Position numbers and translations under genes: made by a program
The notes under the pieces: generated by a model
Database searches by the model: none
Seen by the model: the letters and a program-made list of their open reading frames with translations, nothing else
Told to the model about the DNA's origin: nothing
IMG/VR virus record: IMGVR_UViG_3300032954_000005
Location: 1 to 64,000 of that record
Strand: one strand, 5' to 3'
DNA from: a virus
Length of the DNA: 64,000 bases
In this document: positions 1 to 17,090 of the stretch, one piece after another
Layout of the letters: each line of letters begins with the position of its first letter
Numbering within the stretch: the first letter of the stretch is position 1

Positions 1-1966
1 TAAGTGGCCCTGGTTGTTTTCCCTTTTCAGTGACAGCATAACCCCTTGGTGATTCTGTTATTTGGAAGTTTTTTGTCTGAAAAAAGGGCTTATTTGTACT
101 GCTACCAGAAGTAAACTCCCCGCCCTCGTTGCGCGGGTGCTCCTCTTCCTTAAACTCCGCGTCACGGGTCGCGCGGCGCCACAGCGCCTGGAACAAGGGA
201 CGCAGGCCGCGCGCCACGGCGCGTCGATCGTCCTGGGTTTTGCGCGCCCTGCGATCCGCGTGGCTTGCCAACGCCGCGCCCAGCGCGCGCAGGCCCGCGT
301 CCCTTGTCTCGGGCGCCGGGGCGGTCGACGTCCACAGCCGTCTGACCGTCGCGCGCACCGCGTCCGTCACCGAGCGCTGCGCCTCCAGCTCTTCGGGAGC
401 TGCCTCGGGCTCAATGTTTTCCTCCGCGCCCTCGCCGGGCGGGAGCTGAAGCGGCTCCTCGCTCCCGGCGCCCAGCAGGCCCTCCATCCCGGGCTGCGCG
501 ATGTCGTTCGTCGCCTCAGCAATGTCCTCGTCGGTGATGTTCGTGCCGAAGCCCGTCACGTCAGCCGCCTGCTTAATCTCCTGGAGGCACGTCCGGCGGC
601 CGATGATACCCGCGTTGAACAGCGCCGTCACGGATGCTGTCATGCCGTTCGCCAGCTCCGCCATCTCCTTGTTTGTCAAGGTCCGCGTCGGAAGCCAGCG
701 GTAGTCAAAGTCGTCGGGAATCTCCCCCAGGGTCGACATCGCGATCACCGGCAGCAGCTTGTCGAGCTGCGGCGAAACCTCCCGCGCCTGCTTCGACGCC
801 AGCAGCCCGTGGTAGAGGTACTCGTCCCCCTCGTTCGACTGGCTCAGGCCCGTGGGCGTGCGCCCAAACAGGCGGCTGAACGGGTACTCGGTCGCGCCGC
901 AGATGTCGAGCATGAACGACTGGTACACGTCGTTGATCCCCGGGAAGCTGTACTGGTGAGTCTCCAGCCCGCCCTTCTCAGGAAGTATCAGCATGCTCTG
1001 GTTTGAGATCAGCTGGTTCTGCACCTGGAGCGCCGCCATCAGGCGCTGCGTCGCGAGGCCCGATGACCCAGCCCCCGCGAGGAGCTGCGCCAGGTCAGGC
1101 TGCTTGTAGGCCAGGATGTTCGCCCGGAAGATAAGGTTCGCGATGTTCCAGCTCGTGTTATCCCGCTTGCGCAGCTCCTCGTAGATGATCTCGTAGACCG
1201 AAATCCCCCACATCTGCTCGACCTGCTTCTCCCAGTTCGGGAGGTCGCCGCCGATGAACCGCAGGATGCGCGAGCAGTGCACGTTGAACGTTCTAGTCGG
1301 GGACTGCGTCGTGACCTGGTAAAACTCAGGGAGCCCGAAGTCAGCGCAGTTCTCCACGTCGTCCACGCGCTTCGCCCCCGGGTAGATCCCGCTCCAGCGG
1401 TCGAACACCAGGAGCCCGCGGTACGTGTCGAGGCCCACGTCGTCGTAGTCCAGCGGCTGGTCGAGGATCTCCTCGTGCCCCTTGATGATGATCAGCGCCG
1501 CCGCCCCGCCGAACAGGCGCCCCCACTTCAGCGCCCGCAGCAGCGCCGCGTTGGTCTGCGTCTTTCGAAGAACCTTATCAAACTTGTCGATCTGCTGCGG
1601 CGTCGCACCGCTGGTCAGCGCGTAGCCGTTCTTCAGCATGTCCTCGGCCATGCAGTCCACGATCTTCCGCGCGATCCAGTTCGACCGGTAGAGCGACTGC
1701 ATCAGCACGTAGTTGCGCGTCAGCCGCGTCAGCGGGTAGGCCGTCGACTCCAGGAGCGACGGCGTGCCGAGCCCCATGCGCGCCAGCGTATTGACGAAGG
1801 CGTCGAGCGTCTGCGCGTCGACCGTGTTCAACGGCTGCGATCGCGTCAGCGAGGGCGCGACCTGCCGCGCTACGCGCGCATCGAGGGCCGCCGCGTCCTC
1901 CAGCAGACGCTGCGCCTCCGACGCATCCACGGTCGGAACGTCCGCCAGCATGATCCGATTATCCAT
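1..1966 (-). CDS. Phage portal protein (DUF1073-like) with C-terminal extension; 3' end outside window
   Basis: Not in the ORF track; translated by hand from ATG 1966: DAFVNTLARMGLGTPSLLESTAYPLTRLTRNYVLMQSLYRSNWIARKIVDCMAEDMLKNG, typical of DUF1073 portals. The same frame is open at the window edge (...DAEFKEEEHPRNEGGEFTSG...). Confidence 0.85.
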   Translation of the reverse strand, partial: MDNRIMLADVPTVDASEAQRLLEDAAALDARVARQVAPSLTRSQPLNTVDAQTLDAFVNTLARMGLGTPSLLESTAYPLTRLTRNYVLMQSLYRSNWIARKIVDCMAEDMLKNGYALTSGATPQQIDKFDKVLRKTQTNAALLRALKWGRLFGGAAALIIIKGHEEILDQPLDYDDVGLDTYRGLLVFDRWSGIYPGAKRVDDVENCADFGLPEFYQVTTQSPTRTFNVHCSRILRFIGGDLPNWEKQVEQMWGISVYEIIYEELRKRDNTSWNIANLIFRANILAYKQPDLAQLLAGAGSSGLATQRLMAALQVQNQLISNQSMLILPEKGGLETHQYSFPGINDVYQSFMLDICGATEYPFSRLFGRTPTGLSQSNEGDEYLYHGLLASKQAREVSPQLDKLLPVIAMSTLGEIPDDFDYRWLPTRTLTNKEMAELANGMTASVTALFNAGIIGRRTCLQEIKQAADVTGFGTNITDEDIAEATNDIAQPGMEGLLGAGSEEPLQLPPGEGAEENIEPEAAPEELEAQRSVTDAVRATVRRLWTSTAPAPETRDAGLRALGAALASHADRRARKTQDDRRAVARGLRPLFQALWRRATRDAEFKEEEHPRNEGGEFTSGSSTNKPFFQTKNFQITESPRGYAVTEKGKQPGPL

Positions 1967-2300: not shown

Positions 2301-2665
2301 GCTGACACCCCCGCTCCCTGGGCGATCAGGTTCGGAACCAGGCTCGCCCGCGCGCAGACGAGGCAGTTGATCTCCCGCATCTCAAACGCGTAGTCGGCAC
2401 CGCGAACGTAAACGTTCCACCCCTGGTCGTTCTGGTCGCGCAGCCTCACCCCGATGGGCTGGTCGGTGAAGGCGACCGGCGAGTTGAAGAACGTGCCGTC
2501 GTCGTTCACCCCCACCTGCCACGCGAGGCTCACGCCGTCGCTCAGCTCGAGGGTGATCGCCACCCCCGCCGCGGGAGTGGCGTTCAACGCCGGGGTCCCG
2601 TCCGCGGCCACGTACACCGTGACCGCCCAAACGGTTAAGTTCTCCGACCTAAGGTAGAGGCTCAT
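2297..2665 (-). CDS. Hypothetical protein
   Basis: 122 aa ORF, stop/start overlaps with neighbours. Confidence 0.6.
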   Translation of the reverse strand: MSLYLRSENLTVWAVTVYVAADGTPALNATPAAGVAITLELSDGVSLAWQVGVNDDGTFFNSPVAFTDQPIGVRLRDQNDQGWNVYVRGADYAFEMREINCLVCARASLVPNLIAQGAGVSA

Positions 2666-5600
2666 CAGTGAACGATCGCGCTGTTAAACCTACCGCTGTT
2701 GATGGTTTTGACCACGTTCGACGTGGCGAACGTGTAGAGCGCCCCAAAGTTCGAGTTACACCGCTCCTGGCTGACGATACCCGCGTCGCTCTCCGACCGC
2801 GGCGCGGCGTAGTAGGTCACGCCCGCGCCCGCGTTGTTGATCACCACCACGTGCTGCCACGTCCAGTCGTTGACCTTCGTGTTCAACGTCGAGTCGAGCG
2901 AGAGCTGCGCACAGTTGTTCGGGTCCGTCCCGTACGCCACCCAGTTATGCGGCGCCGACTCCGGGGTAAGCCAGGTGAACGTGCACCCCACGGAGTTACA
3001 GTTTGAAATCACGGGAGTCCCCACCCGCGCTCCCCCGGAGACGTTGAAGTTAAACGGGTACGTCGCGTCCCCCACGGTCGAGGCGATCGTGCACGGCCAC
3101 GCCTCCCCGCTGTTGCACGGGTTCGAGTCCTGGAACACCCCGTAGGGCGCGTACACGTGCCCGTTGACGGTCGTGACGCGCGCCCCGTTGCGCACCTGAA
3201 GGTAGTCGTAGTAGTTCCGCTGCTGCCCCAGCGCCTTAGGCGCGTACACGCTCGACGGGCTGTTGAAGGCGTTCCCAAATACCAGGTCCCCGCGCGTGCG
3301 GTACGTCGCGTTCGAGGTCAGCGCGTACAGCCACGCGAACGGGGTCGCGTTCAGCAGGTTCAGCTCGGTCGTCGTGTAGTCGAACGGCATGAACGGCGGA
3401 AAACTCGCCCCCGTGTAAAGAAAAGCCGCCGGGTCGCCCGCGTTGTAGCCCGTTGACCCGCAAACCGCCCCCGGTGTCGTGCACCACTCGTGCGCCCACG
3501 ACCAGTCCAGGTACGCCTTCACCGCCGTGGGAATCTCAGGGTGATAACGGTTGAATAGTAGCTCCTTGTTGTAGTAGTTGATCAGCGACTCCACCAGGAG
3601 GCCGTTGTACAGCGTCTTCGCCGCCGTCCCCAGCACGAAGCTGTTCGACTGGTAGTCCACGTCCGCGTAGCTGCGAAGGTTAATCGCCTCTTCTAAAATA
3701 GCCAGCTGCGAGTCGACCCGCGTCTTCTCCATGACGTCAGTAGTGCCGTTGATAAGGTCGCCGGCGTCGGAGTACTGCAGCATGTCGCTCACGAACCGCA
3801 CGTCAAACCCGTCCGCCACCACAGCGTACTTGTAAGCGTTGGGAAGCGCCGCCCCTGTGCTTGTGTAGAACTGCGCGAGAGCGTTCGCGTCGTTCGCCAC
3901 CACGGCGCTTCCCCCGCCGCACCCGGCCTGCGTGCTCCCCTTGCACTTCAGGTCGTTCGTGCGGTAGTAGTCCATCAGCATCGAAAAGTTCGTCGTCGCC
4001 GACCACTGCTGAAGATAGTTAGGGGACACCTGTAAAAAATTCCGAAACGGGTCTAGGTTCGCCTGCGCGCACTTGTAGTGCATCTGCGATGTTCCCACGT
4101 TGAAGTAGCTGGTGCCGTTCGCGTCGCTTACCGTCGACCCCCACGCCGTCGCCGACGCCCAGCTGGGCGCCGTCCCCGCGGAGGTCGACGCGCCGTTGAT
4201 TCCCCCGATCGCTCCCCCGCCCGTGGGAAACGTGTAGTAAACGTAGCCCCCACTGTTCCCCGTCACGGGCTTGATAAGCGTCCCGTACGGGTACGCGTGG
4301 TTCGCCTGCCAGTCCATCGCGACCGCCCCTACGAGGTCCCCCTGGCCAAGCTCCTCGCGCGAGCCATCGTAGTAGTAGAGCCCGACGTTCGACGCCGGGT
4401 AGGCTCCGTTGTCCAGCACGCCCTGTGAGTAACGCCACAGCTGCCCCACGTTCGTCGCAGCGCAGTAGTCCCAGGAAAAGTAGCCCATGAACCCCTGGGA
4501 GTTCACCTGGTTGTTGATCGCAGGAAACGAGGTCGCCTTCATCTCCGAAAAGGTCGGCGATGCCAGCACGGTAAACGCGTAGTTCGCCGCCGCGCCTGCG
4601 CCCACATCGACACCTCCCGTGATCCCCTGCATCGTAAGCTTAAACGTGTACGCGCCGGGTGTCGTCGTCCCGCTCGTCGTCTTTACCCAGACAAAGTTCT
4701 GCGTCGTGTAGCTCGGCGTTCCCGTCCCGTTGTCGAACGAGTCGAGCCCCACCTGGTAGTCAGCCGCGTAGTCGCACGGAGCGGTGGGCCCGCAGGACGT
4801 GGCGGTGTAAAGGTAATCCGTCGATGGGGACCCCGACTGGTAGCTGAGCAGGCTCGTAACAACCCAGAACGAAACGCCGTCCACGCAGCTCCCGCCGTGG
4901 GTGGTCAAGGCGCACGTGTGGTCCGACCCATCGTTGAGAATCGCCTGCTTCAGGTAGATCTGGCTCGTGGCGACACCCGCCACCTTCGCGGTCGCCAGCT
5001 GAATTGGAAACGCGTGCCCCAGGTAAACGCTGGGAGGACCAAACGTGTAGAGCCTCAGGTCGTAGGAGCCCGCCGGGTTCGCCTCCACGGGGGTCAGCGG
5101 CATGAGCATTCCGCCCCCGCCCACGATGTCCACCAGGTGCCCGAGGGTCGCGTAACCACCCGTGTCCGTGCGGATGGACGCCACCCAGAAGCCCCACACC
5201 TGGTCGAACGCGCTGTTGTACGCATCCACCAGGGGGAACACCTTCTTAACCTTCACCGCGTGCGTGGTCACCGAGTCCCCCGCCGCTCCGGTCAACGGGC
5301 ACGGGTCGACGACGGCGCAGGCCCAGCGCTCCGGGTTGATCCCCAGGCTGTTGTAGATGTTCCGCGACATCACCACGCGTGAGTCGGAGGCGTGCGCCGA
5401 CCGCCAGCCCACGCAGACCTCGGTCGCGTCCGCGGGCGCGCAGCCCGTGATCGCCTTGTACGTCGAAACGTCGGGCGCCCAGTAGAGCGTCGTGTTCGCC
5501 CCGTACGCCTGCGCCAGCCCGGGCGTGATGGTCAGGGTTACCGGCCCGGCGCCCGTCGCGGTCACGATGCGGTAAAGGTCCGTGTGGTTCGAGTTCTGTG

Positions 5601-5814
5601 ACAGCGTAAACCTGCTCCCCACGGTGGGCGCGTTCGTTCCCGCCTGGATGACAATCGTCGTCGTGCCCGCGTTGTACGACGCCATCAGCATCCAGCCCAC
5701 GGCGCCGTCCTGGTTCGTCAGCTCCACGTTGTTCGTGTTGTTAAGGTCCTGCGCCCAGGCGCAGCCCATGCTCAGCAACAGAACCCCGAATGTCGCCGTT
5801 AAACGTAAGCGCAT
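2665..5814 (-). CDS. Large signal-peptide protein; possible glycan-degrading receptor-binding protein with C-terminal FN3-like domain
   Basis: 1049 aa. N-terminus MRLRLTATFGVLLLSMGCAWAQ; aromatic helical region (PFAWLYALTSNATYRTRGDLVF) suggestive of an alpha/alpha-barrel; many Cys pairs. Confidence 0.6.
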   Translation of the reverse strand: MRLRLTATFGVLLLSMGCAWAQDLNNTNNVELTNQDGAVGWMLMASYNAGTTTIVIQAGTNAPTVGSRFTLSQNSNHTDLYRIVTATGAGPVTLTITPGLAQAYGANTTLYWAPDVSTYKAITGCAPADATEVCVGWRSAHASDSRVVMSRNIYNSLGINPERWACAVVDPCPLTGAAGDSVTTHAVKVKKVFPLVDAYNSAFDQVWGFWVASIRTDTGGYATLGHLVDIVGGGGMLMPLTPVEANPAGSYDLRLYTFGPPSVYLGHAFPIQLATAKVAGVATSQIYLKQAILNDGSDHTCALTTHGGSCVDGVSFWVVTSLLSYQSGSPSTDYLYTATSCGPTAPCDYAADYQVGLDSFDNGTGTPSYTTQNFVWVKTTSGTTTPGAYTFKLTMQGITGGVDVGAGAAANYAFTVLASPTFSEMKATSFPAINNQVNSQGFMGYFSWDYCAATNVGQLWRYSQGVLDNGAYPASNVGLYYYDGSREELGQGDLVGAVAMDWQANHAYPYGTLIKPVTGNSGGYVYYTFPTGGGAIGGINGASTSAGTAPSWASATAWGSTVSDANGTSYFNVGTSQMHYKCAQANLDPFRNFLQVSPNYLQQWSATTNFSMLMDYYRTNDLKCKGSTQAGCGGGSAVVANDANALAQFYTSTGAALPNAYKYAVVADGFDVRFVSDMLQYSDAGDLINGTTDVMEKTRVDSQLAILEEAINLRSYADVDYQSNSFVLGTAAKTLYNGLLVESLINYYNKELLFNRYHPEIPTAVKAYLDWSWAHEWCTTPGAVCGSTGYNAGDPAAFLYTGASFPPFMPFDYTTTELNLLNATPFAWLYALTSNATYRTRGDLVFGNAFNSPSSVYAPKALGQQRNYYDYLQVRNGARVTTVNGHVYAPYGVFQDSNPCNSGEAWPCTIASTVGDATYPFNFNVSGGARVGTPVISNCNSVGCTFTWLTPESAPHNWVAYGTDPNNCAQLSLDSTLNTKVNDWTWQHVVVINNAGAGVTYYAAPRSESDAGIVSQERCNSNFGALYTFATSNVVKTINSGRFNSAIVH

Positions 5815-5816
5815 GC

Positions 5817-8800
5817 TCAGTTGACGATTAGGTAGCTAAAGCACGCCGGGTTGGTGGCCGGCGCCGCCACGAGCCCGATCGTAAAGCTTGTTCCCGCCGT
5901 GCGCGCGGTCACCACGGGTGACCCCAGCGTAAGCGGCGACGTGGTATCACAGGTCACGCCCAAACGCGCGCCCAGGCTCTGGTCCTCGGTAAGTAAGATC
6001 TGACTGTTCGCCGTCACGGCGGTCGTGTCCACCACCACCGTCGTCGCGCTCGCCGCAACGACCACGGCGCCACTCGTGGCGGCGCCGCAGACCGCGGGGC
6101 TCCCCGCGCTGGCGCAGTTCGCCGTTTGGTACCCGGTGATCGCCGTATGCGTAAACGTTCCGCCGCTGTACGCGCAGACGTGCGTCGCGTCGCCGCACGG
6201 GCTGGGGATCGCTACCGCCGTCGGCGCCGCTAAGCTTCCCGTGCCGTTCATGACGATCGTGTTTGCGGCCTGCTTCGCAAAGTTCGCCAGCGGAAGCGCG
6301 TTGTACGCAAACAGCGAGTCGGTCCAGGTGCACGTGCTCAGGGTACAAGAAAGGTACATCAGGTCGTTCCCGGCGGGCGCCCCCACCGGGGCGTTGAGAA
6401 TATAGTTGCTCGTCGCCTTCGTCCCGAGGGTCGTCATGCCCCCGCTCGCGCCGTTAAATAACGTCAGCGTTCCCGAGTGCGTTGCGTCCCCCAGGGTCGG
6501 CGTGCGCGTCAGCGCGGGAGTCGTGCCCGCGAGGATCATGCCCGCGGAGCCCGCCACGTCCAGCGTCGTATTCGAGGATGTTCCCCCCACCACGACCGTT
6601 GCGTTCGGACTCGTGATCGTGTCACCACCCGCCCCGGCAGGTGTGTCACAGCCCGTGCCGCCCGAGCCCTGGTAGGGATAGCACTTCGCGCCCACCGCGG
6701 CGACGGCCGACAGTGGGCTCCCGCCTAAAACGTAGCCCGACAACGTCGTCCCCGTGCCCGTGCCGCCCTGGCCTACGGGAAGCGCCGCCGACAGGTGCGT
6801 CGCGTTCACCGTCGGGTTCGGATAACTCCCGCTAAGGTCCCCCGACGCCGCGCCGTTCGGCGGAAGCGCCGTGGGCGGCGCCCCCGCGTCGGTCAGCTGA
6901 ATGATGTTCGTCGAGACGGTCACCCCCACGAGGTCCCCCGTCGTCGGGGGCGTCGCGAACCCCTTGACGATGCTCGACGAGATCGCGCCCGACGCCCAGG
7001 TAGTGAAGGCCCCCGACGCCCCGTTGTACTCTGTCAGCGTCCCGGAGTGCGTTGCGTCCCCCAGGGTCGGCGTGCGCGTCAGCGCGGGAGTCGTGCCCGC
7101 GAGGATCATGCCCGCGGAGCCCGCCACGTCCAGCGTCGTGTTTGTCGGGGTTCCGCCCACGGTCAGGGTGCCATTCGGGGTCGTGATCGTGTCGCCCCCG
7201 CCGCCCCCGCCGCAGCTCTGCTGCGTCCACGTGTTCGTCGAGGAGCACTCGTAGAGGTTACAGCCCGCGGTCGCGTCAGTCGCGAAGTACAGCTGGCTTA
7301 CCGAGCAGGTCGCGGGCCTGCTGGCCGCTAGGCCGTACAGAAACGTATTCTGAAAATCGGAGCTTCCGTCGTTGTTGTGTCCCAGGCCCACCAACGCCGG
7401 GCTGTTGTGGTTCAGCGCGAGCACCGAGCTATCAAGCAGCAGGTTGCCGTAGATGGACTGCGTGCCCACAGAGTTGGCGACGTCAGCACCGCCGCTGTCC
7501 CCGTTCCGGGTCGATGCCGGGTCCACGTTGGTTACGATCGCGGTCGCGCCCCCCGCGGTGTACACGCCCCACGTGTGGTTCCCACCCGAGGGCGTCAGGT
7601 TCCAGTACGGGTGATCCACCTTGAGAACGGCCGTCGAGGCCGATGACGGGCAGCCCGCCTGGTTCATCTGGTACGCGTGGGAGCCGGTGACCGCCCCGGT
7701 GTTGATCGACGTGATTCCGGTAAAGCTGTACACGCTGTTGTTCGGGTACGCCCCGGTCGAGCAGTCCAGCCCCGCGAACTCGTCATCGTTCGAGACGAAC
7801 GTGCTGTCGCTACCGTACACCGTATTCTGCTGCGTCCCGCCGTTCCGATACACGACCACGTCAGCCTGGCCAACCGCGTACAGGTTCGTAAACTTAAAAT
7901 TTTTCGTCGGGGCCGTGCTGTCGCCGCCGATGGGAGCGGTCAGGCAGCTTGTGGTCGGGGTTATGTAACCCACCCCGTGGGTAAGTAAGTTCGTGGTGCC
8001 GTTCGTGTTCAGCAGGTACGACGACCCACCGCAGGACGCTGATCCCGTCACGATCTGCGCCTGGTAAGGGTTATCGCAGATCGAGTCGACCGTAACGTTT
8101 TTTAAGCCGCTCAGGCTGGGGAGCAGCGCGGAGCCGCAGTCGTACAGCACGGACGCCGGGTTCCCGCAGCTTAACGTAACGGTGTCGCCGCTCGCCAAGG
8201 TTCCGAACGCCATCGCGGTCAAGAGGGCCGTACAGCGGTCGGCGTTCGTGTTCGTGGCCGCGTCGTAAACCGTAGGAGACCCCGTCGCGTGGTAGACGAT
8301 GACCCCGCCGTTCACCAGCCCTGGACCTGCCTGGATCGTGGACGTGGGCCCTGTAGGGGAGGTGATGGTCACGCCACCCGTGCCTACCAGCGTAGTAATT
8401 CCAGCGCCTGCGCTGCCTGAATAAGGGCATTCACCGCCGACGCCCAACAAACAGTGCAGCTTATTGTCGCTTCCCAGGTAAAGCCCGAAGTCGACGCCCC
8501 CGTCCAACGTTGGTGTCCCGGACTGCTTCCAGCCCTCCCACAGGGAGGGCGTCGCGCTCGACCCGACCTGAACGCCCGCGTCGAAGTAGGTCTCCTGCGC
8601 AAAATGCTGGCCCGACGCGTTCAGAAACGCCTTGGAGGCCAGGTCCGCGGGTAGGTTCGTCACCTGACTCTCCGCGATGTTCGCGCTCAGGCCCCCGGCC
8701 GTCCCCGTCGTGCTGGCGGTGTTGTTCGGGATGTCGGCCGACTGTAGCACGGGAAGCTGCGCGTGTGGAAGCGTCCCCGTCGTGAGGTCGGACGCCGACC

Positions 8801-9914
8801 CGGAGGTCGCGACCGCCGTCAGCGCGGGCTTGTTCTTAATAAACGACCCGCCCGACGCGGCGTTCCAGTCAACGTACGCCGCCGCGAGCCCACCCGCCGT
8901 CCCCGTCGTGTTCGCGCCGTTGTTTGGAATGTCCCCCGACTGTAGCGCGGGAAGCTGCGCGTGGGGAAGCGTCCCCGTCGTAAGGTCCGACGCGCTGATT
9001 GTCACGTTCGAGGTCAGCGCGTGCCCGTTGACGGTCAGGCTTGAGGGCACCTTTCCGTTCAGCTGCGTCTGAACGCTCGACGTCGGGTCGAGGTACCCAA
9101 ACGTCGTGGGCGTGACCCCGTCCACCGTCTTGTTCGTCAGCGTCTGCGTGTCGGTCGTTCCCACGATCGCCCCCGCGGGAAGCGTCGGCTTGTTCGCAAT
9201 CGACGCCCCGCCCGAACCAGCGTTCCAGTCGATATACTGGCTGGTGAGCCCGGCGGCCGTCCCGGTGGTCGACTGGTTCCAGGTCGGCGCCTCCGACAGC
9301 TTCAGCTTCGCCGACGCGTCTAGCCCGGCGTACCCTGACGCCGCGTCCTTCGCCGCGACGTTCTCCGGGGTGTAACCAACGTAGGACGACACGCTCGGCA
9401 GGAAGTTCGCGGGGAGCGGGTTCAAGGCGTTGTACGTCGCTCCCCAGGACTGCGACCCCGTGTAGGCCGGGACCCCCGCGTTCGCGGGCCAGGACTGCGA
9501 GCCCGCGCAGGAGATCGAAAACGCCGGAGCGGTGCCTGACACGGTACAGTTGACGAAGTTGAGCGTCCCCGCCGTCGACAGCGTTCCGTAATCGACCCCA
9601 TTGTTCTGGAAACCGATCGACGCGACCCCCGACGACCCGCCGCCAAACAGCGGCTTCCACGTGTAGGTGTTGTCCGTATTTTCCGTACACACCTGCGCCA
9701 CGTCGGCGACCCCCGACCCGCCGCGCACGAAGTTCATAAGACCCGCGTTGGGGTGCGTGTTGTCGCAGTTCGCCGCATAGTTCTTCAGGGTAAGCTGCGT
9801 GAACGTGTTCAGCGCCGTAAAGTTGTTCGCGCCCTCGCGCACCGCCGTCGTGTAGGTCTGGGCGAGGGCCAGAAGGGGCAGCCAAAGGAGCAGCAGGGTA
9901 AGCTTCGTCTTCAT
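5817..9914 (-). CDS. Long tail fibre-like protein with signal peptide
   Basis: Likely start ATG 9914 (MKTKLTLLLLWLPLLALAQ). G/T/S/A-rich, with fibre motifs (GTTDTQTLTNKT, ASGDLSGSYPNPTV) and internal repeats. Confidence 0.75.
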   Translation of the reverse strand: MKTKLTLLLLWLPLLALAQTYTTAVREGANNFTALNTFTQLTLKNYAANCDNTHPNAGLMNFVRGGSGVADVAQVCTENTDNTYTWKPLFGGGSSGVASIGFQNNGVDYGTLSTAGTLNFVNCTVSGTAPAFSISCAGSQSWPANAGVPAYTGSQSWGATYNALNPLPANFLPSVSSYVGYTPENVAAKDAASGYAGLDASAKLKLSEAPTWNQSTTGTAAGLTSQYIDWNAGSGGASIANKPTLPAGAIVGTTDTQTLTNKTVDGVTPTTFGYLDPTSSVQTQLNGKVPSSLTVNGHALTSNVTISASDLTTGTLPHAQLPALQSGDIPNNGANTTGTAGGLAAAYVDWNAASGGSFIKNKPALTAVATSGSASDLTTGTLPHAQLPVLQSADIPNNTASTTGTAGGLSANIAESQVTNLPADLASKAFLNASGQHFAQETYFDAGVQVGSSATPSLWEGWKQSGTPTLDGGVDFGLYLGSDNKLHCLLGVGGECPYSGSAGAGITTLVGTGGVTITSPTGPTSTIQAGPGLVNGGVIVYHATGSPTVYDAATNTNADRCTALLTAMAFGTLASGDTVTLSCGNPASVLYDCGSALLPSLSGLKNVTVDSICDNPYQAQIVTGSASCGGSSYLLNTNGTTNLLTHGVGYITPTTSCLTAPIGGDSTAPTKNFKFTNLYAVGQADVVVYRNGGTQQNTVYGSDSTFVSNDDEFAGLDCSTGAYPNNSVYSFTGITSINTGAVTGSHAYQMNQAGCPSSASTAVLKVDHPYWNLTPSGGNHTWGVYTAGGATAIVTNVDPASTRNGDSGGADVANSVGTQSIYGNLLLDSSVLALNHNSPALVGLGHNNDGSSDFQNTFLYGLAASRPATCSVSQLYFATDATAGCNLYECSSTNTWTQQSCGGGGGGDTITTPNGTLTVGGTPTNTTLDVAGSAGMILAGTTPALTRTPTLGDATHSGTLTEYNGASGAFTTWASGAISSSIVKGFATPPTTGDLVGVTVSTNIIQLTDAGAPPTALPPNGAASGDLSGSYPNPTVNATHLSAALPVGQGGTGTGTTLSGYVLGGSPLSAVAAVGAKCYPYQGSGGTGCDTPAGAGGDTITSPNATVVVGGTSSNTTLDVAGSAGMILAGTTPALTRTPTLGDATHSGTLTLFNGASGGMTTLGTKATSNYILNAPVGAPAGNDLMYLSCTLSTCTWTDSLFAYNALPLANFAKQAANTIVMNGTGSLAAPTAVAIPSPCGDATHVCAYSGGTFTHTAITGYQTANCASAGSPAVCGAATSGAVVVAASATTVVVDTTAVTANSQILLTEDQSLGARLGVTCDTTSPLTLGSPVVTARTAGTSFTIGLVAAPATNPACFSYLIVN
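6463..7196. repeat. Intragenic direct repeat of about 165 bp (6463-6626 and 7033-7196)
   Basis: Near-identical DNA encoding GDTIT.PN.T..VGGT..NTTLDVAGSAGMILAGTTPALTRTPTLGDATHSGTLT twice, offset 570 bp. Confidence 0.9.
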
Positions 9915-9918
9915 CTTT

Positions 9919-10140
9919 TTAAGGTATGCACACCTTGTACTCACACGGCCACTGCCAGCCGTGATAGGTTGGGTGGTCCGCGTTGTCCGAGTAGCCCGAC
10001 GCACCCACCGCAACTCCTGGCGAGCCGTCCGGCTTCTGAAACAGGACGTTATTTCCGCTGAAGCCCGTTACGATGCCGCCGATCGCCGTAGGAACGAAGA
10101 TGTCGCCTACCTGGATTTCGCGTCCGTTGAGGTCTGTCAT
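9919..10140 (-). CDS. Hypothetical protein
   Basis: 73 aa ORF overlapping the upstream stop. Confidence 0.55.
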   Translation of the reverse strand: MTDLNGREIQVGDIFVPTAIGGIVTGFSGNNVLFQKPDGSPGVAVGASGYSDNADHPTYHGWQWPCEYKVCIP

Positions 10141-10517
10141 TTACGCTTCGCCTCCTCCTCGATGCGCTTGTCCGCCTCCTGGAGGTCGTGGATCTCCTGG
10201 TCCACCGCCCGCCAGTGCTCCAGCGCCACATCCTTGTTCATCTTGCCGTCCTGAAGCACGATGATCTCCTGCTGCTGCTGCGCCACCTGGTCCATCACGC
10301 CGCGAATCTGGATGATTCCGCCCAGCGCGGGGATGATGAGCGACAGCGCCCACGCGATGAGAATCTGCCAGCCCGCGAACCGAGGCTTATGGTTTTCCCC
10401 GAGGGACCGCCTCACGACCTCGGCGATCTGGCCAAGCTGAAGCTCGGTAAACACAGGAACGGCGTGGTTCGACGACGAAGTTACGCGGGGGTTCACCTCG
10501 TCAGCTCCCCAGTCCAA
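10137..10517 (-). CDS. Single-TM coiled-coil membrane protein (possible lysis accessory protein)
   Basis: Hydrophobic segment WQILIAWALSLIIPALGGII followed by a Q/E-rich coil; start uncertain. Confidence 0.5.
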   Translation of the reverse strand: MDWGADEVNPRVTSSSNHAVPVFTELQLGQIAEVVRRSLGENHKPRFAGWQILIAWALSLIIPALGGIIQIRGVMDQVAQQQQEIIVLQDGKMNKDVALEHWRAVDQEIHDLQEADKRIEEEAKRK

Positions 10518-10550
10518 TCGCTACGTTTGCCGTCATCAGGCTACATCCTC

Positions 10551-12161
10551 CTACTTAATTCGCAAGCCCGAGTCCACCCAGCTCCCACCCGAGCAGGAGC
10601 AGCCCGTTCCCCGGCACATGCTCCCCGCCGACGCCCCGCCCGAGCAATAATACAGGATATTCGTCCCGCCCGCCTTGACGTAGTAGCCGCTGACCGTCCC
10701 ATTGTCGGCGTGGATCGACGCGCCCGCGCCCGCGGATCCCGATGAGTCGACGAAGATGTCGGCGGTCGTGTCGGCGGGGACGGTATACGGCGTGGCGTGG
10801 GTCGTCGTGTCGGTGTACGTGACGACGTTGTAGCCCGAGAAGCTCCCGCCGATGTTCGTCCCGCTGCAGGGCAGCGCCAGCGCCACCTGGTACCACGTCG
10901 CGCCGTCCGCCGAGACGATGAGGTCGGCGGACTGATACCACGGGTAACAGACGAACGTGACCGTGTTGTTCGGCGAAGCGTTTCCATTCGTAATGTGGGC
11001 CGACGCCCCCGGCTTCGTTCCCAGGCCGTTGTCGTGCCCCACGATTTCGTAGTAAACGGTCGTCGACCCCGTCGTGTTGGGCAGGATGGTCGGCGCCGCG
11101 ATCGCGTTCGCCTTCCCGGTCACGATCCGCCCGTTGAACCCGGTGCCTCCGTTCAACGTGTTCCCGGCGAGGGTCCAGAGCTTACCCGCCCCGACGATCA
11201 CGCTTCCCGTGGTGTTACAGTCCTGGTCGCCGCAGTAAAAGTAGCCCGCCAGCGTGCTAAGGCTCACCGTCGGGTACGCCGTCGTGTCGTTGTCCGTCCA
11301 GTTGCAGTACTCGTTCGGCGCGTTAGCGGGGGTCAGCTCCTCGCACGCGCTAAATGAGCTCAGGACGCCGCCCGACACATGGGTTGGCGTCGACACCGGC
11401 CCGACCTTGCTGCTGTCGCTCGTGAACAGCGCATCGGCCGCGGCGCACGGGTACGCGCCCCGCGAGATGATGACGTTGCTGTAGCCGCCCATGTACTGTC
11501 CTGTGGCCGCGGCGGTCGCTTCCGTCCACGTCAGGTAGTTGTAGTGCGCGCTGTCGATCTGGTCAGCCGACCACGCGCCAGGGGCGGAGCAGGAGATGGG
11601 CAGCGAGTACCCTGAGTTGGAGTCGACGAAGCGAAACCAGTAGCACGCGCCCGACGGGCTTCCTGTCCCCACGTGCGTAACGGTCGCCGGGCACTGCGTC
11701 GGGTCGGGGAGCTGGTACGTGTTCAGCCTTCCCTGGGTGACGAGACCCCCCACCGCGTCATACATCAGCACCGGGACGGAAAAATCAGCCTGCCCCTTGG
11801 TCGTCGGCCACGGGCTCAGCCAGGGGCGGTACGTCAGCTGCTTTGAGTAGCTGGGGTCGGAGGGCGTTCCGTCGGGCTTTAGGAAAATCCAGTCGAGCTC
11901 ACCGGTGTTCTGCATCTGCGTCTTAAAGTAGCGGTAGGTCGCGCTCCCGCCGCCCACGGTGACCGGGCCCTTCGTCAGGAGGCTGGGAAGCGCCTGCCCG
12001 CCCGACAGGTAAGAGTCGAGCGAAAGAAAATTCTGGTTCACGACCGTGTCCCAGTTCGCCGCGTTGTGCGACGGAAGCGTGAGCCCCAGGTTGGGCGTGG
12101 TGCTCTGCGCCCCCGCGGCGAGCGCCGCGAGCAAAAATAGGATAATGCACATTATTTTCAC
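10551..12161 (-). CDS. Cys-rich fibre/spike-like protein with signal peptide
   Basis: MKIMCIILFLLAALAAGAQ followed by STTPNLGLTLPSHNAANWDTVVNQNFLSLD, a motif common at fibre N-termini. Confidence 0.7.
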   Translation of the reverse strand: MKIMCIILFLLAALAAGAQSTTPNLGLTLPSHNAANWDTVVNQNFLSLDSYLSGGQALPSLLTKGPVTVGGGSATYRYFKTQMQNTGELDWIFLKPDGTPSDPSYSKQLTYRPWLSPWPTTKGQADFSVPVLMYDAVGGLVTQGRLNTYQLPDPTQCPATVTHVGTGSPSGACYWFRFVDSNSGYSLPISCSAPGAWSADQIDSAHYNYLTWTEATAAATGQYMGGYSNVIISRGAYPCAAADALFTSDSSKVGPVSTPTHVSGGVLSSFSACEELTPANAPNEYCNWTDNDTTAYPTVSLSTLAGYFYCGDQDCNTTGSVIVGAGKLWTLAGNTLNGGTGFNGRIVTGKANAIAAPTILPNTTGSTTVYYEIVGHDNGLGTKPGASAHITNGNASPNNTVTFVCYPWYQSADLIVSADGATWYQVALALPCSGTNIGGSFSGYNVVTYTDTTTHATPYTVPADTTADIFVDSSGSAGAGASIHADNGTVSGYYVKAGGTNILYYCSGGASAGSMCRGTGCSCSGGSWVDSGLRIK

Positions 12162-12302
12162 GGCCGCGCAACCATCCTTCCACCAAGAATTTTTCGCGTG
12201 TTTTGGAGGTACGGGTACTGGCCCTCTTTGAGCAGGTCGGAAGCCGTGACCGTGACCATGCCACCAACGTTCTCGAAGATCATTCGCGGCGAGTTTGGCA
12301 TC

Positions 12303-15300
12303 TTAGTTCACCGGCTGAACACTCAGCCCTACAAGCTGTATTGCTGTACCCTGCGCTCCGCCGAAGGTGCTGCCCGTGAGTGTAGGCGTTCCGCTGCAAG
12401 TCGCCGTTCCGCTATGTACGGTCGCACCCGTCACAGATGTGCAGGCGTAGCCCGTGTTGGTGATCGTAATCGCTCCCGGTGTCCCGCCACTGACTGCAAT
12501 AGTGCCAGACGCCCCGGTGCAGGTCGGCGTAAAAGTGTCGATGGTGCAGGAACCCGTTCCCGAGAACGATCCGCCAGAACTGTAAGTGGTAGTTGAAAGG
12601 CCAGTCGCGGAGAAGAACAATTCGACTTGGGCATTGTAGCTGCCCGTTCCGGGTGCGGTCGGCTGCGCTGTAGCATTGACCGTTCCGGCGGTAGACGACG
12701 GCATGACGATAGCCGTGTAATCCGAAATAACGTGACCATCGGCTGCAGCGGTTGCCGTCTCCTGAAAGGTTACTGATGCTAGGTACTTCGTTATAGCATT
12801 ACCGAGCGCCATCGTCTGCTGCGGATTGACCGCCAGCGTACTCCCGTTGTACAGACGCAGAGTGAGCGTAGGGGCGGTAGTCGGAGTCCAGATGGCAAAA
12901 TCGGCGCGTATCAGCAGTTGCTTGCCGGCAGAAGTAAAGTAGTTCGCGCTTACCGGGTAGTTGGTAGCAAACGTGGCAATCGTGCCACCACTAATGGGGT
13001 CCGTTACGTTAGGACAGCTCGTCGCGCCACCAATAAAAGTTACTGAGGTATCGCCTGCGTGCGCACTAATACAGTCACTGGATGGAACCTGCACGTTTGC
13101 CGTCTGCGCCAGCGCCGCACCTACCGGAATAATGGGAAGCTGATTCCACGTTCCGGGGGTTCCGGCGGAAACACACGTCCACCCGGCCACGCCGCTCCCA
13201 GCCGGGGCTGTGTTCCAAACCGTATCGCCTACGTTGTGTGCTCCGCTAATGGGCACCGCCGTTCCATAGGAGACATTGAACCATGTCGTGCCGCCACTCT
13301 TCGCCGTCCACGCGGAGGCGTTCGTGCCGTCCTTGAAGGTCGAGCCCGCAACCACGGCGTTCGACGGAAACATGGCCGTGGTCAAAGCTAGAGCGTTTTG
13401 CGTCAGGCCATCAATCAAGATCGTCGAGCCAGAACCTGCATAGACCGGGCCGACGTAGTTAGTGGTCGTGCCACCCGTAATTGAAACCGTTCCACCCTTG
13501 ATGTTAAGAACGCTGCCAGTCGTGCCGGACAGGTTATAGCCGTAGACCATCTGCGTCGTGCTCAGATCATCATGGATGTCATTGTTCTCCATGTACTGAG
13601 TCAGCGCGTTGCTGGGGTTGTATTCGTAGATACCCGCACGGTACGCCGAGGTCACGGTTGCAGACTTGGCGGAGCCGCAATTAAACAAATGGTTGTTCTT
13701 GATGACTGCGTTTGGGGTCGTTGCGGCGTTCCAGAAACATGCGCCCGTTGGGTTTATCGCCGTATTGCCATCGAACACGAAGTGAGTAACGGTAGTGCCG
13801 TTCACATCCATCAGTCCGAACGCCTGGCCTCCAGTAACATAGGTGGTCTCGCTTCCCGACTGCGCATCGTAGCCGTCGTACTCCACGAGGTTGCCTGTCC
13901 ACGACATGCTCTCGATGGGCAGGTTCGTAGAGCCGTCCGTATAGATGCCGCGTGGGTAGCCAGTCAGCGCTCCGCCGTTGCTTGGCTTAGTTGTCCACGA
14001 GGCGTTGGCGATCTTGATGTTGTTATTCGCTGCTATGACGTTGTGCAGTCCGTATCCAGAATTATGAGAGCTGTACGTTTCAGAAATGAGACGGATGCCG
14101 TTGTAGAGGTCTTTGCCGACATTGTTCGAGACGTTGATGAGCACACTGTCGGTAATAGCTACGCCCGTCACGTTCATAAACTGATAGAAGCCCACTGCGT
14201 GGTTTCCCTGAATGACTGTGTTGCCACTGTGAGTCTCAATCGCCGCCACACATCCGGCCTTGTTTATCGCGCAGAGAAAGTGATTGTTCGTAATAGAAAC
14301 ATCGTCATTCGTGGTGTAGACGATGGAAGAGTCGAACCAATACGTGCTCCCCGAAGTGTTGACCGAGAAAATGTTGTTATCTATGACGGTGTGATCGGTG
14401 TGGAGCGAGAAGGCATTGGCTGTAGCTAGGTCTATCAACTGCGAGTTCAGCACGCGGTTGTTGCTTCCCGAGGAGGCATAGAAAATCGTGCGCCGATAAG
14501 TCCCGGTGTTCGATGTAGTAGGGTTCCCGGTTGTGTTCGCATTCACGATCAGGTTACTGAACGTGACGTTGGAATACGCTCCGCCGTTGGTGCCAAAGAT
14601 GGATTGATAATCGCCTGTAGAGTCGGCAACCTTAACCCCACCTATACCTTGCCCCTCGAATGTCACACTTCCTCCCGACATAGCAATTAGATGGTCAGAA
14701 AGGTTTGAGGCTTGGGTGATGGTCACAACACATGGGAATAAGACTGTACCGGACGCGGCAATTGCGGCACTCGTGGCGGATTGCACCGCTGCCGTGCTAT
14801 CCCCACTGCCGCATGTTGCGCCATAGCCAACGACATTGAAAGTGCTTCCGGCTCCTCCTGCTGTGGCCTGACCCCACGTACCTGTTCCTGCCGTGATGTT
14901 CTGGCACGTCCACAACTGCCCTGTGGAGTTGACGAGGTTCCCCGGCGCTCCCTGTGGGCAACTCCCCGAGGGCGCGGCCGCCACAGTAATCACCGCGCTA
15001 GGCGGAAAATTCGGGTTCGGGCCGGGAAGCGCCTTCGCCGCGGCGCTCAGCACGGCGGAAAGGTCCTGCGTCGCGCCGTTTATCGTCGCGACGACCGACG
15101 CGCAGTACTGCCCGGTGCTGTCGCAGAAAGCGATGGTCCACGTGGTGTTCGCGGGCGTGATCCCCGCCGCCGACCAAAGGCGCTGCGTAAAGCTCCCGCC
15201 GCCGCTCAGGATGCCGCTGTAGTACTGCGGGGTCACCGCGCCGTCGCCCACGAACGTCGCGCGATCGACGCCCGTGTTGAGCGTGGCGGTCCACGTCCCG

Positions 15301-15416
15301 CCCGCGTACGCCTTCCCGTTCGGGTCGACGATCGTCGCACTGACCGTGGTGTACTGCTGCGCCCGCGCGGCCAAGGAAAGTAAAAACAGCGCGAGGAGCA
15401 AAAGCCTAGATCGCAC
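12303..15416 (-). CDS. Tail spike / depolymerase with right-handed beta-helix (pectate-lyase-like), with signal peptide
   Basis: MRSRLLLLALFLLSLAARAQ; FNVVGYGATCGSGDSTAAVQSA beta-helix entry motif; Asn-rich coils. Confidence 0.8.
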   Translation of the reverse strand: MRSRLLLLALFLLSLAARAQQYTTVSATIVDPNGKAYAGGTWTATLNTGVDRATFVGDGAVTPQYYSGILSGGGSFTQRLWSAAGITPANTTWTIAFCDSTGQYCASVVATINGATQDLSAVLSAAAKALPGPNPNFPPSAVITVAAAPSGSCPQGAPGNLVNSTGQLWTCQNITAGTGTWGQATAGGAGSTFNVVGYGATCGSGDSTAAVQSATSAAIAASGTVLFPCVVTITQASNLSDHLIAMSGGSVTFEGQGIGGVKVADSTGDYQSIFGTNGGAYSNVTFSNLIVNANTTGNPTTSNTGTYRRTIFYASSGSNNRVLNSQLIDLATANAFSLHTDHTVIDNNIFSVNTSGSTYWFDSSIVYTTNDDVSITNNHFLCAINKAGCVAAIETHSGNTVIQGNHAVGFYQFMNVTGVAITDSVLINVSNNVGKDLYNGIRLISETYSSHNSGYGLHNVIAANNNIKIANASWTTKPSNGGALTGYPRGIYTDGSTNLPIESMSWTGNLVEYDGYDAQSGSETTYVTGGQAFGLMDVNGTTVTHFVFDGNTAINPTGACFWNAATTPNAVIKNNHLFNCGSAKSATVTSAYRAGIYEYNPSNALTQYMENNDIHDDLSTTQMVYGYNLSGTTGSVLNIKGGTVSITGGTTTNYVGPVYAGSGSTILIDGLTQNALALTTAMFPSNAVVAGSTFKDGTNASAWTAKSGGTTWFNVSYGTAVPISGAHNVGDTVWNTAPAGSGVAGWTCVSAGTPGTWNQLPIIPVGAALAQTANVQVPSSDCISAHAGDTSVTFIGGATSCPNVTDPISGGTIATFATNYPVSANYFTSAGKQLLIRADFAIWTPTTAPTLTLRLYNGSTLAVNPQQTMALGNAITKYLASVTFQETATAAADGHVISDYTAIVMPSSTAGTVNATAQPTAPGTGSYNAQVELFFSATGLSTTTYSSGGSFSGTGSCTIDTFTPTCTGASGTIAVSGGTPGAITITNTGYACTSVTGATVHSGTATCSGTPTLTGSTFGGAQGTAIQLVGLSVQPVN

Positions 15417-15708
15417 GCCTTACCGCCTCCTCGTTGGCGCCCAGCCTCTCCATGAACCTCGCAAACTCAGTTTGGGCGCGGGCGCTCCTCGACCTGCGCT
15501 TTACGTTCGATGTCTTCGCCCCCTCCGCGTCGAGCGTCTTCGCGTTCGCGGGCGGAACGACGGGGGCGACGATCTCCAACCGAAGCGCGATCACCCCGTC
15601 GCTGGGGGTCACCTCCCGCTGCAGGCGCTTGAAGCGCGCGGAGTCGACGCCGAACGCCCGCACCATCTCATCGAGGTAGGCCAGGAGAAGCTTTTCGTCC
15701 TTCGTCAT
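15406..15708 (-). CDS. Hypothetical protein
   Basis: Start MTKDEKLLL at 15708 overlaps the terL stop (ATGA). Confidence 0.55.
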   Translation of the reverse strand: MTKDEKLLLAYLDEMVRAFGVDSARFKRLQREVTPSDGVIALRLEIVAPVVPPANAKTLDAEGAKTSNVKRRSRSARAQTEFARFMERLGANEEAVRRAI

Positions 15709-17090
15709 GCCTGCTGTAGCCTCCACGGCGCCAGCTTCGTGTGTACGCCGTACCGAAGGCAATCCTCCGGGTCGTCGTCCTTCTTCAGCGGCTGCTCCAC
15801 CCCGCGCGCCGCGGCCTTTTCGTCCCACTGGTAGTTCGGCAGGTGCGCGACCAGGACGGGACAGTTGTCCTTGTGAATCCTGATCAGGCGCCGCGTGAGC
15901 GCTGACGACACGGTGCGGATTCCGTCCATCACGTCGTTGTTCGCAATACAGTACCAGATTCCACGCTGAACGAGCTCCGCCTCGAACGACGCGCACTCCG
16001 GGGGAAGAATCACCTGCGCGTCGGGCGCGACGTTCTTGTTGCCCGGCTCCCAGCGGCCCGTCGCGTGGTTGAAGCGCGCGTGAAGAAACTCCTCCAGGTC
16101 GTCGGCGTACTGGGCATCGGTTTTTTGGCGCACGGTCTGCTGCGTGTGCGAGTCGCGCGGAACCCAGCGCGCGTCGTCGTGGTCGAAGGTCGACGCGTGC
16201 GAGTCCCACACGTACTCACGCTCCACCCAAAGCGTCTTCCCGTCGTCGAAGATGTCGAAGTACACCTGCGGGTGGTCGGTCCCGTAGTCCACGGGCACGT
16301 ACCGTTCAGCGTAGCCCCCCGCGACGAGGAGCCCCTTCGGGCGCGTCGCGTCGTCGTACAGCAAATCGTCCGACCACGAGTCGCGATAGATCGCACCCGA
16401 CGCCACGACCCACCGGCCGAGGACGAAGCGCTCACGAAACACGCCCGCGTACAGCGAGTTGAGGTACGCCTTGTACGCCTCCGACACGTGCGGGTTGTCG
16501 GCGAGCGTAAAGTGCATGCTGAACAGCGTCCCAGCGTCGATCAGCTTACGGTTGTCGAGAAGCTCCTTCTTCACGTAGTGCTGCGGATTGTCGGGGTTCG
16601 TCGTGAAGTAGGCGCGCGCGTTGTCGGGCGACATGCGGTTGAGGAGCATCATCACGAACGACTTCGGCATCAACGTCAGCTCGTCGCCGATCACGCGCCC
16701 CACGGTCGCGCCGCGCACGTACTTCTCCGACCCCTCGTCCTTCGCGCCCATCACGAGCCACCGCGAGCCGAACAGCGTAAGCTCTCCCGACTGTCGGTTA
16801 TAGGTGTAGTTCTCCGGCCCGATCAGCGTGAACAGGTCGTTCAGCACGTTCGTGTAGATCGTCTGCTTCGACACGCCGGTGAAGAGGCCGACGCCCCCCA
16901 CGTCGTAGCGCGTGAGCGCCAATGCCTTCGGGTGAAGCGCCCAGGTCTTCGCCGAGCGCACCGCGCCGTGAAGGACGTTGATGCGCGCGTCGTACTCAGG
17001 CGGGCGCAGCGCGAAGCGCGCCACGCGCGGCGTGAACGGCTTCAGCGCAGACATAAGAAGCAGCGCGTAAAGAAAAGGTAAGGCGCGCAC
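15705..17090 (-). CDS. terL: Terminase large subunit (PBSX/Terminase_6-like)
   Basis: Walker A GAVRSAKT, Walker B VIGDE, TTNPD coupling motif, nuclease VDYG and C-terminal DDDPEDCLRY. Confidence 0.93.
   Translation of the reverse strand: MRALPFLYALLLMSALKPFTPRVARFALRPPEYDARINVLHGAVRSAKTWALHPKALALTRYDVGGVGLFTGVSKQTIYTNVLNDLFTLIGPENYTYNRQSGELTLFGSRWLVMGAKDEGSEKYVRGATVGRVIGDELTLMPKSFVMMLLNRMSPDNARAYFTTNPDNPQHYVKKELLDNRKLIDAGTLFSMHFTLADNPHVSEAYKAYLNSLYAGVFRERFVLGRWVVASGAIYRDSWSDDLLYDDATRPKGLLVAGGYAERYVPVDYGTDHPQVYFDIFDDGKTLWVEREYVWDSHASTFDHDDARWVPRDSHTQQTVRQKTDAQYADDLEEFLHARFNHATGRWEPGNKNVAPDAQVILPPECASFEAELVQRGIWYCIANNDVMDGIRTVSSALTRRLIRIHKDNCPVLVAHLPNYQWDEKAAARGVEQPLKKDDDPEDCLRYGVHTKLAPWRLQQA

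Follow-up and report, generated by a model that had tools for sequence, protein, structure and literature searches.

In the IMG/VR virus record IMGVR_UViG_3300032954_000005, four large genes on the minus strand lie between the gene for the terminase large subunit and that for the portal; their products P0004, P0003, P0002 and P0001 are the subject of this report and are together called the left cluster. The window, that is, the whole stretch of DNA analyzed, covers the first 64 kb (positions 1 to 64,000) of the record, which is 77,248 bp long with a CheckV completeness of 100% and represents a 77-kb contractile-tailed wetland phage, probably with an Acidobacteriota host. The portal gene spans both record ends, which makes the genome circularly permuted. 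According to textbooks, tailed phages are assembled entirely within the reducing cytoplasm. The left-cluster proteins carry secretion signals and paired cysteines, which make it very probable that they fold in the periplasm, away from the site of particle assembly. We here describe these proteins and propose, with a probability of roughly 0.4, that the phage uses two compartments for assembly: a particle without recognition gear would be built in the cytoplasm, and Sec-exported, disulfide-bonded spikes and fibres would join its baseplate at lysis.

Results

In translation, all four proteins open with a signal that ends in AQ, just as the preliminary description of this DNA had stated (GCAWA/Q, LLALA/Q, LAAGA/Q and AARA/Q, with the slash at the predicted cleavage site). 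All four signals comprise one or two basic residues, an uncharged hydrophobic core of 13–17 residues and small residues at −3 and −1, followed by glutamine; the start of P0002 is the ATG at 9914 (MKTK...) and not the TTG at 10013. Signal peptides were called with a rule-based score (threshold 5.6) on the 104 called open reading frames (ORFs) of the whole 77-kb genome. The four N-termini also fit the n-h-c plan of Sec/signal peptidase I signals, which comprises a basic n-region, an uncharged hydrophobic h-region of approximately 7–15 or more residues and small residues at −3/−1. The four cluster proteins score 5.8–7.5, and the threshold is reached by 10 of the 104 ORFs, the other six being three proteins of a right-hand cluster, a lipobox protein (22450), one protein at 28396 and a 149-aa head-module protein. 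None of the terminase, portal, capsid, sheath, tube, baseplate or replication proteins among these ORFs scores, and the chance of four out of four large ORFs scoring is approximately 1e-4. All eight fibre-type proteins of the phage, including those behind the baseplate genes, carry signals and are thus all predicted Sec substrates.

No twin-arginine (RRxFLK-type) motif is present in the four N-termini, and there is no conserved lipobox across them, given that the loose SMGC of P0001 is missing in its orthologues, which keep ...A/QDL. The four C-termini have no PEP-CTERM or other sorting signal. Internal starts backed by a Shine–Dalgarno (SD) sequence are absent near the cleavage sites of the four genes, hence a leaderless isoform is not evidently encoded. 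Orthologues retain both the signal and its cleavage context even though the signal sequence has diverged.

The mature proteins contain 20 (P0001), 28 (P0002), 14 (P0003) and 17 (P0004) cysteines, while the cysteine content of core virion proteins is 0–1.3%. The closely spaced pairs described earlier hold up when sequential pairing (first with second, third with fourth and so on) is compared with random placement, with P = 0.002 for P0001, 0.007 for P0002, 0.08 for P0003 and 0.002 for P0004, the last value being obtained after post-hoc removal of one odd cysteine. A simpler test for a neighbour within 12 residues is significant for P0001 alone, in which 16 of the 20 mature cysteines lie 12 residues or fewer from their partner. 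Homologues of P0002 comprise 53 signal-bearing and 18 leaderless proteins, with a median cysteine content of 1.43% versus 0.49% (P = 5e-4), and glutamine occupies +1 in 33 of the 53. The genomes that best match the shaft module of P0002 are all from Acidobacteriota (Acidobacteriaceae, Bryobacterales, Terriglobales and Terriglobus albidus); their homologues are giant (1428–3065 aa), signal-bearing and cysteine-rich, and DsbA-like genes occur in five of five and VKOR in four of five of these genomes. The earlier proposal of export followed by disulfide-bonded folding thereby gains support at the sequence level from four sides: conserved signals, conserved paired cysteines, an approximately threefold higher cysteine content in signal-bearing P0002 homologues, and DsbA-like and VKOR enzymes in the likely host phylum. 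We consider it highly probable that the four proteins are exported and folded oxidatively in the periplasm.

Structure prediction assigns P0004 to the tailspike-type beta-helix proteins. Its AlphaFold2 (AF2) model has a mean predicted local distance difference test (pLDDT) score of 79.9, and the closest VIA matches are the HK620 tailspike (Z 28.6, root-mean-square deviation 3.3 over 428 residues), phi29 gp12 (28.0), Pam1 (26.7) and Det7 (26.2). Secreted bacterial lyases and epimerases follow close behind (RbmB with Z 25.4, and AlgE), and Foldseek searches of PDB and BFVD likewise return both tailspikes and the pectate-lyase superfamily. Across the leaderless tailspikes (HK620, Det7, the CBA120 tailspike proteins and phi29 gp12) the P0004 beta-helix superposes with Z 25–29 over 350–430 residues, and the common plan consists of a small N-domain, a neck, the beta-helix and a C-terminal domain. 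Unlike P0004, these tailspikes lack a signal peptide and reach their fold in the cytoplasm, and sequence identity is only 12–16%. PF12708 is present in 21 of 46 aligned P0004 homologues; P0004 itself is below threshold and has no Pfam match at E 0.1. Its best match, P0093, is leaderless and opens with the N-domain that follows the signal in P0004. With tblastn against 50,697 cultured phage records only short C-terminal patches were found, and an IMG/VR scan with P0004 gave no relative.

A related phage (L002; terminase large subunit 85% identical) encodes P0094, which has in common with P0004 the N-terminal 163 residues (50% identical) and the C-terminal domains, whereas the central beta-helix is different. 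The GC content at third codon positions (GC3) of P0004 is 0.68 compared with 0.85–0.88 in the neighbouring genes, and window GC drops to 0.58–0.60 at 12–16 kb. The lower GC3 and the exchanged beta-helix suggest a recent module swap.

P0002 is a long fibre with an E value of 9e-6 to phrog_23008 (tail fiber) and of 1e-4 to PF24146, the latter below the cut-off. It has 84 mosaic homologues, the common part of which was located by BLAST as the shaft module, with the remainder being lineage-specific. The orthologue in L002 (P0009) is 73% identical and also signal-bearing; tblastn found no counterpart among the cultured phage records. Scanning IMG/VR with the shaft module returned 31 loci, in 18 of which the matched ORF is signal-bearing with 6–36 cysteines, compared with 1–6 in leaderless ORFs. 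Ten loci (L006–L008 and L014–L020) are related myophages with a 48% identical baseplate J, in which ORFs of the tail-fibre slot are 47–60% identical to residues 226–440 of P0002. In four of these (L006–L008 and L020) a signal-bearing fibre directly follows the J, gpI-like and orf191-like genes, i.e. the canonical tail-fibre slot, and in L014–L019 a signal-bearing fibre gene for an 884-aa protein (for example L019:7413-10055) lies within the baseplate module, between the orf254-like and gpW-like genes.

The fibres of these ten relatives and the right-hand cluster of the phage (50951-56944) resemble the left cluster in signal type and cysteine enrichment and have the shaft module in common with P0002. 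They differ in location, occupying the canonical tail-fibre slot, while the left cluster lies between terminase and portal at a position that is not conserved. The first gene past the gpI-like gene, orf191 (56369-56944, minus strand), is leaderless; over the N-terminal 160 residues it is conserved, with 38% identity to L020:4925-5887, and the C-part of orf191-type proteins is variable or extended in the relatives. A split fibre, in which a signal-bearing 229-aa protein would be the severed outer half of the leaderless 320-aa protein of L020, was considered and rejected given that the two have no similarity and only orf191 matches the N-part of the latter.

The two clusters also have a short segment in common: residues 1207–1237 of P0002, a 31-residue cysteine-containing stretch, are 55% identical to residues 568–598 of a 717-aa right-cluster protein (52904-55057). 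The segment is also present in the L002 orthologue of P0002 and may be a junction module common to both clusters.

For P0003, the mature N-terminus has a fibre-type motif (TPNLGLTLP...W...N.NF..LD), followed by an orphan body. The N-domain matches a signal-bearing 176-aa protein (L002:9007-9537) at 60% identity and resembles a leaderless small protein directly behind the L020 baseplate genes; the motif also heads a leaderless tail fibre with a Gp53-like_C domain, P0043. P0001 is predicted to have a beta-rich N-part, a helical middle (approximately 440–840) and an FN3-like C-end. Among 5.8 billion proteins it has only two homologues (67% and 47% identity), both signal-bearing, with signals of differing sequence, a retained ...A/QDL junction and invariant cysteine pairs. 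Sequence and profile searches gave no PDB or Pfam relative of P0001, none of the 50,697 cultured phage records matched it in tblastn, and IMG/VR scans with P0001 and its alignment gave no relative. In the ESM Atlas the only lead for P0001 is weak (0.79, to an FN3-type cluster of Acidobacteriota), and P0003 has no match. PDB sequence searches with all four proteins returned no relatives, and no lysozyme, amidase or transglycosylase family was found in any of them by Pfam or PHROG. Hence the preliminary statement that the bodies look like fibres or spikes is borne out for P0004 (beta-helix) and P0002 (fibre repeats), and hinted at for P0003 by its N-terminal motif, while P0001 has no recognizable fold.

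All four proteins have signal-bearing counterparts in L002: orthologues of P0001 and P0002, the 176-aa protein with the P0003-type N-domain, and P0094. In L002 the P0004-like gene is flanked by the genes for the small and large terminase subunits instead of following the latter. The differing gene order in L002, together with the absence of the cluster from a more distant relative (G002, see below), indicates that the left cluster is accessory cargo in a variable late-operon slot.

Every gene from approximately 18.5 kb to the portal is on a single strand, and adjacent genes are spaced by −8 to +35 nt, the sole exception being a 288-nt gap past the terminase large subunit gene. This gap (15417-15704, between the terminase stop and the P0004 start) is without a convincing ORF. 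On the operon strand, promoter-like sites were found only at 18.6 kb (upstream of the terminase small subunit gene) and approximately 0.6 kb (within portal), both outside the cluster, and terminator-like sites occur at chance level. The single strand, the tight junctions and promoter-like sites only outside the cluster point to expression late in infection together with the packaging and head genes, and this layout argues against independently regulated lysogenic cargo.

Table 1 Coordinates of the left-cluster genes, their protein regions and surrounding features
Feature	Position	Strand	Remarks
Left cluster	P0004 15416-12303, P0003 12161-10551, P0002 9914-5817, P0001 5814-2665	-	between terminase large subunit and portal
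P0004	12303..15416	-	1037 aa, GTG start; SD-like GAGGAGG 9 nt upstream of start
P0004 signal peptide	residues 1-19 (nt 15416-15360)	-	
P0004 N-terminal region	beta-sandwich 23-112; short helix 119-129; low-confidence linker 133-185	-	AF2 model
P0004 right-handed beta-helix	residues 190-715 (nt 14849-13272)	-	pLDDT >90
P0004 two C-terminal beta-sandwich domains	residues 773-1037	-	
ORF	12158..12301	-	47 aa, separates P0004 from P0003; neither signal nor family
P0003	10551..12161	-	536 aa, GTG start
P0003 signal peptide	residues 1-18 (nt 12161-12108)	-	
ORF	10137..10517	-	126 aa; one transmembrane segment, charged coiled-coil-like C-terminus; no PHROG family
P0002	5817..9914	-	1365 aa from ATG 9914
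P0002 signal peptide	residues 1-18 (nt 9914-9861)	-	
P0002 lineage-specific N-domain	residues ~19-200	-	
P0002 common tail-fibre shaft module	residues ~200-440	-	nt 9239-8595 = residues 226-440
P0002 cysteine-rich central region, repeats and C-end		-	two ~65-aa repeats near residues 907 and 1097; weak K1-lyase_C-like C-end
P0001	2665..5814	-	1049 aa; start 2 nt past P0002 stop
P0001 signal peptide	residues 1-21 (nt 5814-5752)	-	
Two small overlapping genes	2665-2297, 2300-1959	-	link cluster to portal
Portal	2..1966	-	phrog_146, E 2.5e-106; downstream neighbour; gene resumes at opposite record end
Terminase large subunit	15705..17090	-	phrog_2, E 2e-32; without signal peptide; upstream neighbour, shared operon
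Terminase small subunit	18262-17717	-	PHROG scan
Replication and DNA-modification block	~19.9-50 kb	+	PHROG scans
Contractile-tail baseplate module	51-64 kb	-	tape measure, hub, gpW-like, baseplate J, gpI-like (PHROG scans)

Discussion

The four genes would be late genes of a virulent-type myophage encoding Sec-exported, disulfide-stabilized proteins of tailspike or tail-fibre ancestry that target host surface glycans. Judging from the operon layout, they would be transcribed along with the terminase, portal and head genes. The precursors are predicted, from features conserved in relatives, to pass the inner membrane via Sec and to be cleaved by signal peptidase I past AxA, leaving an N-terminal glutamine. 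Host DsbA-like and VKOR enzymes, which are found in the likely host phylum, would then make local disulfides between the paired and conserved cysteines, and the mature proteins would be held in the periplasm while heads and tails are assembled in the cytoplasm. Lysis would merge the two compartments, and P0002, the depolymerase-type spike P0004 and probably P0003 could then dock via their mature N-domains as accessory receptor-binding proteins. The left cluster is probably a swappable cassette in a variable slot beside the terminase gene; on the two-compartment reading it would be one of exported receptor-binding proteins and would widen the host range. Docking of at least one of the four proteins at lysis, which we prefer over a role as free enzymes, has in our estimate slightly less than an even chance.

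Several observations favour docking. The best structural relatives of P0004 are virion tailspikes, and P0004 and P0094 keep their ends and swap their centre, as is usual for receptor-binding proteins that are anchored and swappable. The P0002 shaft recurs in signal-bearing fibres right behind the baseplate genes of relatives, the mature N-domains of cluster proteins also head leaderless phage fibres, and signals are found on all eight fibre-type proteins. The positional homologues, the conservation of anchor-like domains and the cost to the phage of a free fibre favour docking for P0002, P0004 and probably P0003; for P0001, a soluble enzyme is more likely than docking.

Literature searches gave no paper on Sec signals on tailed-phage fibres or spikes, one rumen-phage paper merely counting signal peptides. 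A further argument for docking comes from the cultured Cellulophaga phage phi18:3 (NC_021794), in which three consecutive large proteins (gp085, gp086 and gp087) have Sec-type N-termini that end in a small residue followed by Q, as called by the same rule-based score. The record annotates gp085-087 as structural or tail proteins from tandem mass spectrometry (MS/MS) of virions and makes no mention of the signals; the genes are located away from the main tail genes, with terminase and portal a few kb downstream. The two phages differ in that there is no sequence similarity, the phi18:3 host belongs to Bacteroidota, the phage family is another and gp085-087 have only 0–3 cysteines. The annotation is the only experimental hint found that signal-bearing proteins may reach particles.

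Outside phages, the MAT fibres of Bdellovibrio bacteriovorus combine a signal, a conserved beta-rich N-domain of approximately 130 aa, a long phage-like trimeric fibre and a variable tip (Caulton et al. 2024, PMC10769870). Some have disulfides, and this plan illustrates that tail-fibre-type trimers can be Sec substrates (PMC10769870). P0004 (signal, beta-sandwich 23-112) and P0002 have a MAT-like plan, a resemblance of plan only. MAT fibres are encoded by the cell and located on the predator's own surface, whereas the left cluster is part of a phage late operon, and its proteins are therefore not MAT fibres in the strict sense. Exported and signal-arrest-release (SAR) endolysins such as fOg44 Lys44 and P1 Lyz are, like the cluster proteins, late proteins of tailed phages that use the host Sec machinery (PMC6116005), and a review of the enzymes with which phages breach the cell envelope lists Sec signals for endolysins only (PMC6116005). 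Endolysins are muralytic lysis enzymes, whereas the cluster proteins are 4–10 times larger and of receptor-binding type.

A number of findings weigh against two-compartment assembly. By map, the left cluster is approximately 40 kb from the baseplate genes, neither in nor beside the tail module, and no docking partner on the particle is indicated. In the relative G002 (terminase large subunit 44–50% and portal 43% identical) the terminase-portal interval holds unrelated small genes only, which implies that the four proteins are dispensable for particle assembly in this clade. P0001 shows nothing fibre-like, its AF2 model from a three-sequence alignment being too poor for use (pLDDT 33.5), and P0003 as a whole has no homologue among the 5.8 billion proteins. 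Among the top 150 relatives of P0004 (40 with and 93 without a signal), cysteine content does not differ significantly between signal-bearing and leaderless proteins, and many of the signal-bearing homologues resemble ordinary secreted bacterial enzymes with the helix directly past the signal. The leaderless orf191 could be the true small receptor-binding protein or an adaptor, and the MS/MS detection in phi18:3 could stem from co-purifying protein.

Part of this evidence fits with free exported enzymes or binders that are released at lysis, or leak earlier, and act around the burst cell by degrading or binding capsule, extracellular polysaccharide (EPS) or lipopolysaccharide (LPS), so that progeny can get out of the matrix and debris does not hold them back. 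An accessory slot far from the tail genes and absent in G002, a P0001 that is more enzyme-like than fibrous, a P0004 beta-helix equally near to the secreted lyases and epimerases, and the many P0004 homologues consisting of signal and helix only would all be expected from such proteins, and Sec export physically parts them from the assembling particle. Halo-forming free phage depolymerases are also known (PMC6116005).

For a 1365-aa fibre with the shaft of baseplate-adjacent fibres, however, there is no obvious free use, and once released it would be a rival of the virions for receptor binding; the conserved N-domain and swapped centre of P0004 and P0094 also suggest an anchor. To our knowledge, the known free phage depolymerases are surplus leaderless tailspikes and none is a Sec substrate. 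On balance we regard free enzymes as rather unlikely, though still the strongest of the rival explanations.

Receptor masking, already raised as a decoy role in the preliminary description, is a less probable explanation. Here the exported proteins would bind the receptor or its precursors in the infected envelope, blocking superinfection and sparing progeny from debris. Export does bring domains of receptor-binding type into the envelope, and an exported phage protein with such a role exists, the T5 lipoprotein Llp, which masks FhuA. However, exclusion genes are usually early and these lie in a late operon, four very large proteins would be a costly mask, and Sec alone leaves proteins in the periplasm while glycan receptors are on the surface, with neither a lipobox nor an outer-membrane anchor to bridge the distance. 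We thus consider a decoy function improbable.

The hydrophobic N-termini could also serve to anchor the proteins in the membrane or as helices in assembly, or the virion pool could come from a leaderless cytoplasmic form; cleavage is predicted from a rule-based score, which leaves some room for this. Nevertheless, the hydrophobic cores are too short for a stable anchor and are followed by AxA and glutamine at +1 as in host-type signals, orthologues keep the property and not the sequence, and high numbers of paired, conserved cysteines are atypical of cytoplasmic phage proteins. A leaderless form would further need an internal start with a ribosome-binding site near the cleavage site, and there is none. 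Uncleaved or leaderless proteins are therefore very improbable. Least probable of all is lysogenic-conversion cargo, i.e. host-type secreted adhesins or enzymes on a temperate phage benefiting the lysogen: the giant signal-bearing fibres in Acidobacteriota chromosomes and the foreign-looking codon usage of P0004 would fit, but the genes are translationally coupled in the terminase-portal operon without their own promoter or terminator, GC3 of P0001–P0003 equals that of the core genes, the full replication and DNA-modification set of the window is typical of a lytic phage, and the chromosomal homologues themselves adjoin terminase genes.

Two-compartment assembly, if true, would mean that tailed phages can be built in two places, with the parts joined in a last step at lysis. 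Host-matched signal peptides could then be used as a feature in host-range prediction, recombinant production of such proteins would need periplasmic or oxidizing expression, and phages engineered against soil and gut bacteria would need designs that take export into account. Should the proteins instead be free enzymes, approximately 16% of a lytic phage genome would be invested in secreted glycan-active proteins, which is large and unusual, and this would bear on how phages in soils and wetlands travel through the polysaccharide matrix of Acidobacteriota. For virome annotation, such genes are easily misread as bacterial cargo.

Additional observations

In four of the loci with chromosomal homologues of the P0002 shaft (L034:3621-12041, L035:6930-15539, L036:1641-14443 and L043:210-11042) the giant fibre gene lies upstream of a 530–545-aa ORF. 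This ORF is a terminase large subunit by Pfam (Terminase_6N/6C) in L034, L035 and L036, and the 543-aa ORF of L043 has no Pfam match. The genes that come next in L034 and L036 are one for a HipA_2-type kinase and one that is DUF3037-like. The terminase adjacency parallels that seen in this phage and L002, and the Acidobacteriota fibre-terminase loci could be prophages or other phage-derived elements.

The long fibre gene is preceded by a gene for a small protein with a single transmembrane segment both in this phage (10137-10517) and in L002 (9578-9988). The two proteins could be holin-like or assembly factors; homology between them was considered and rejected, and their topologies seem opposite. 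In the early/middle region, a plus-strand ORF (22450-22995) encodes a 181-aa protein with a lipoprotein-type signal (...LLLVGC) and 10 cysteines, which may be an exported early protein involved in, for example, exclusion or envelope modification.

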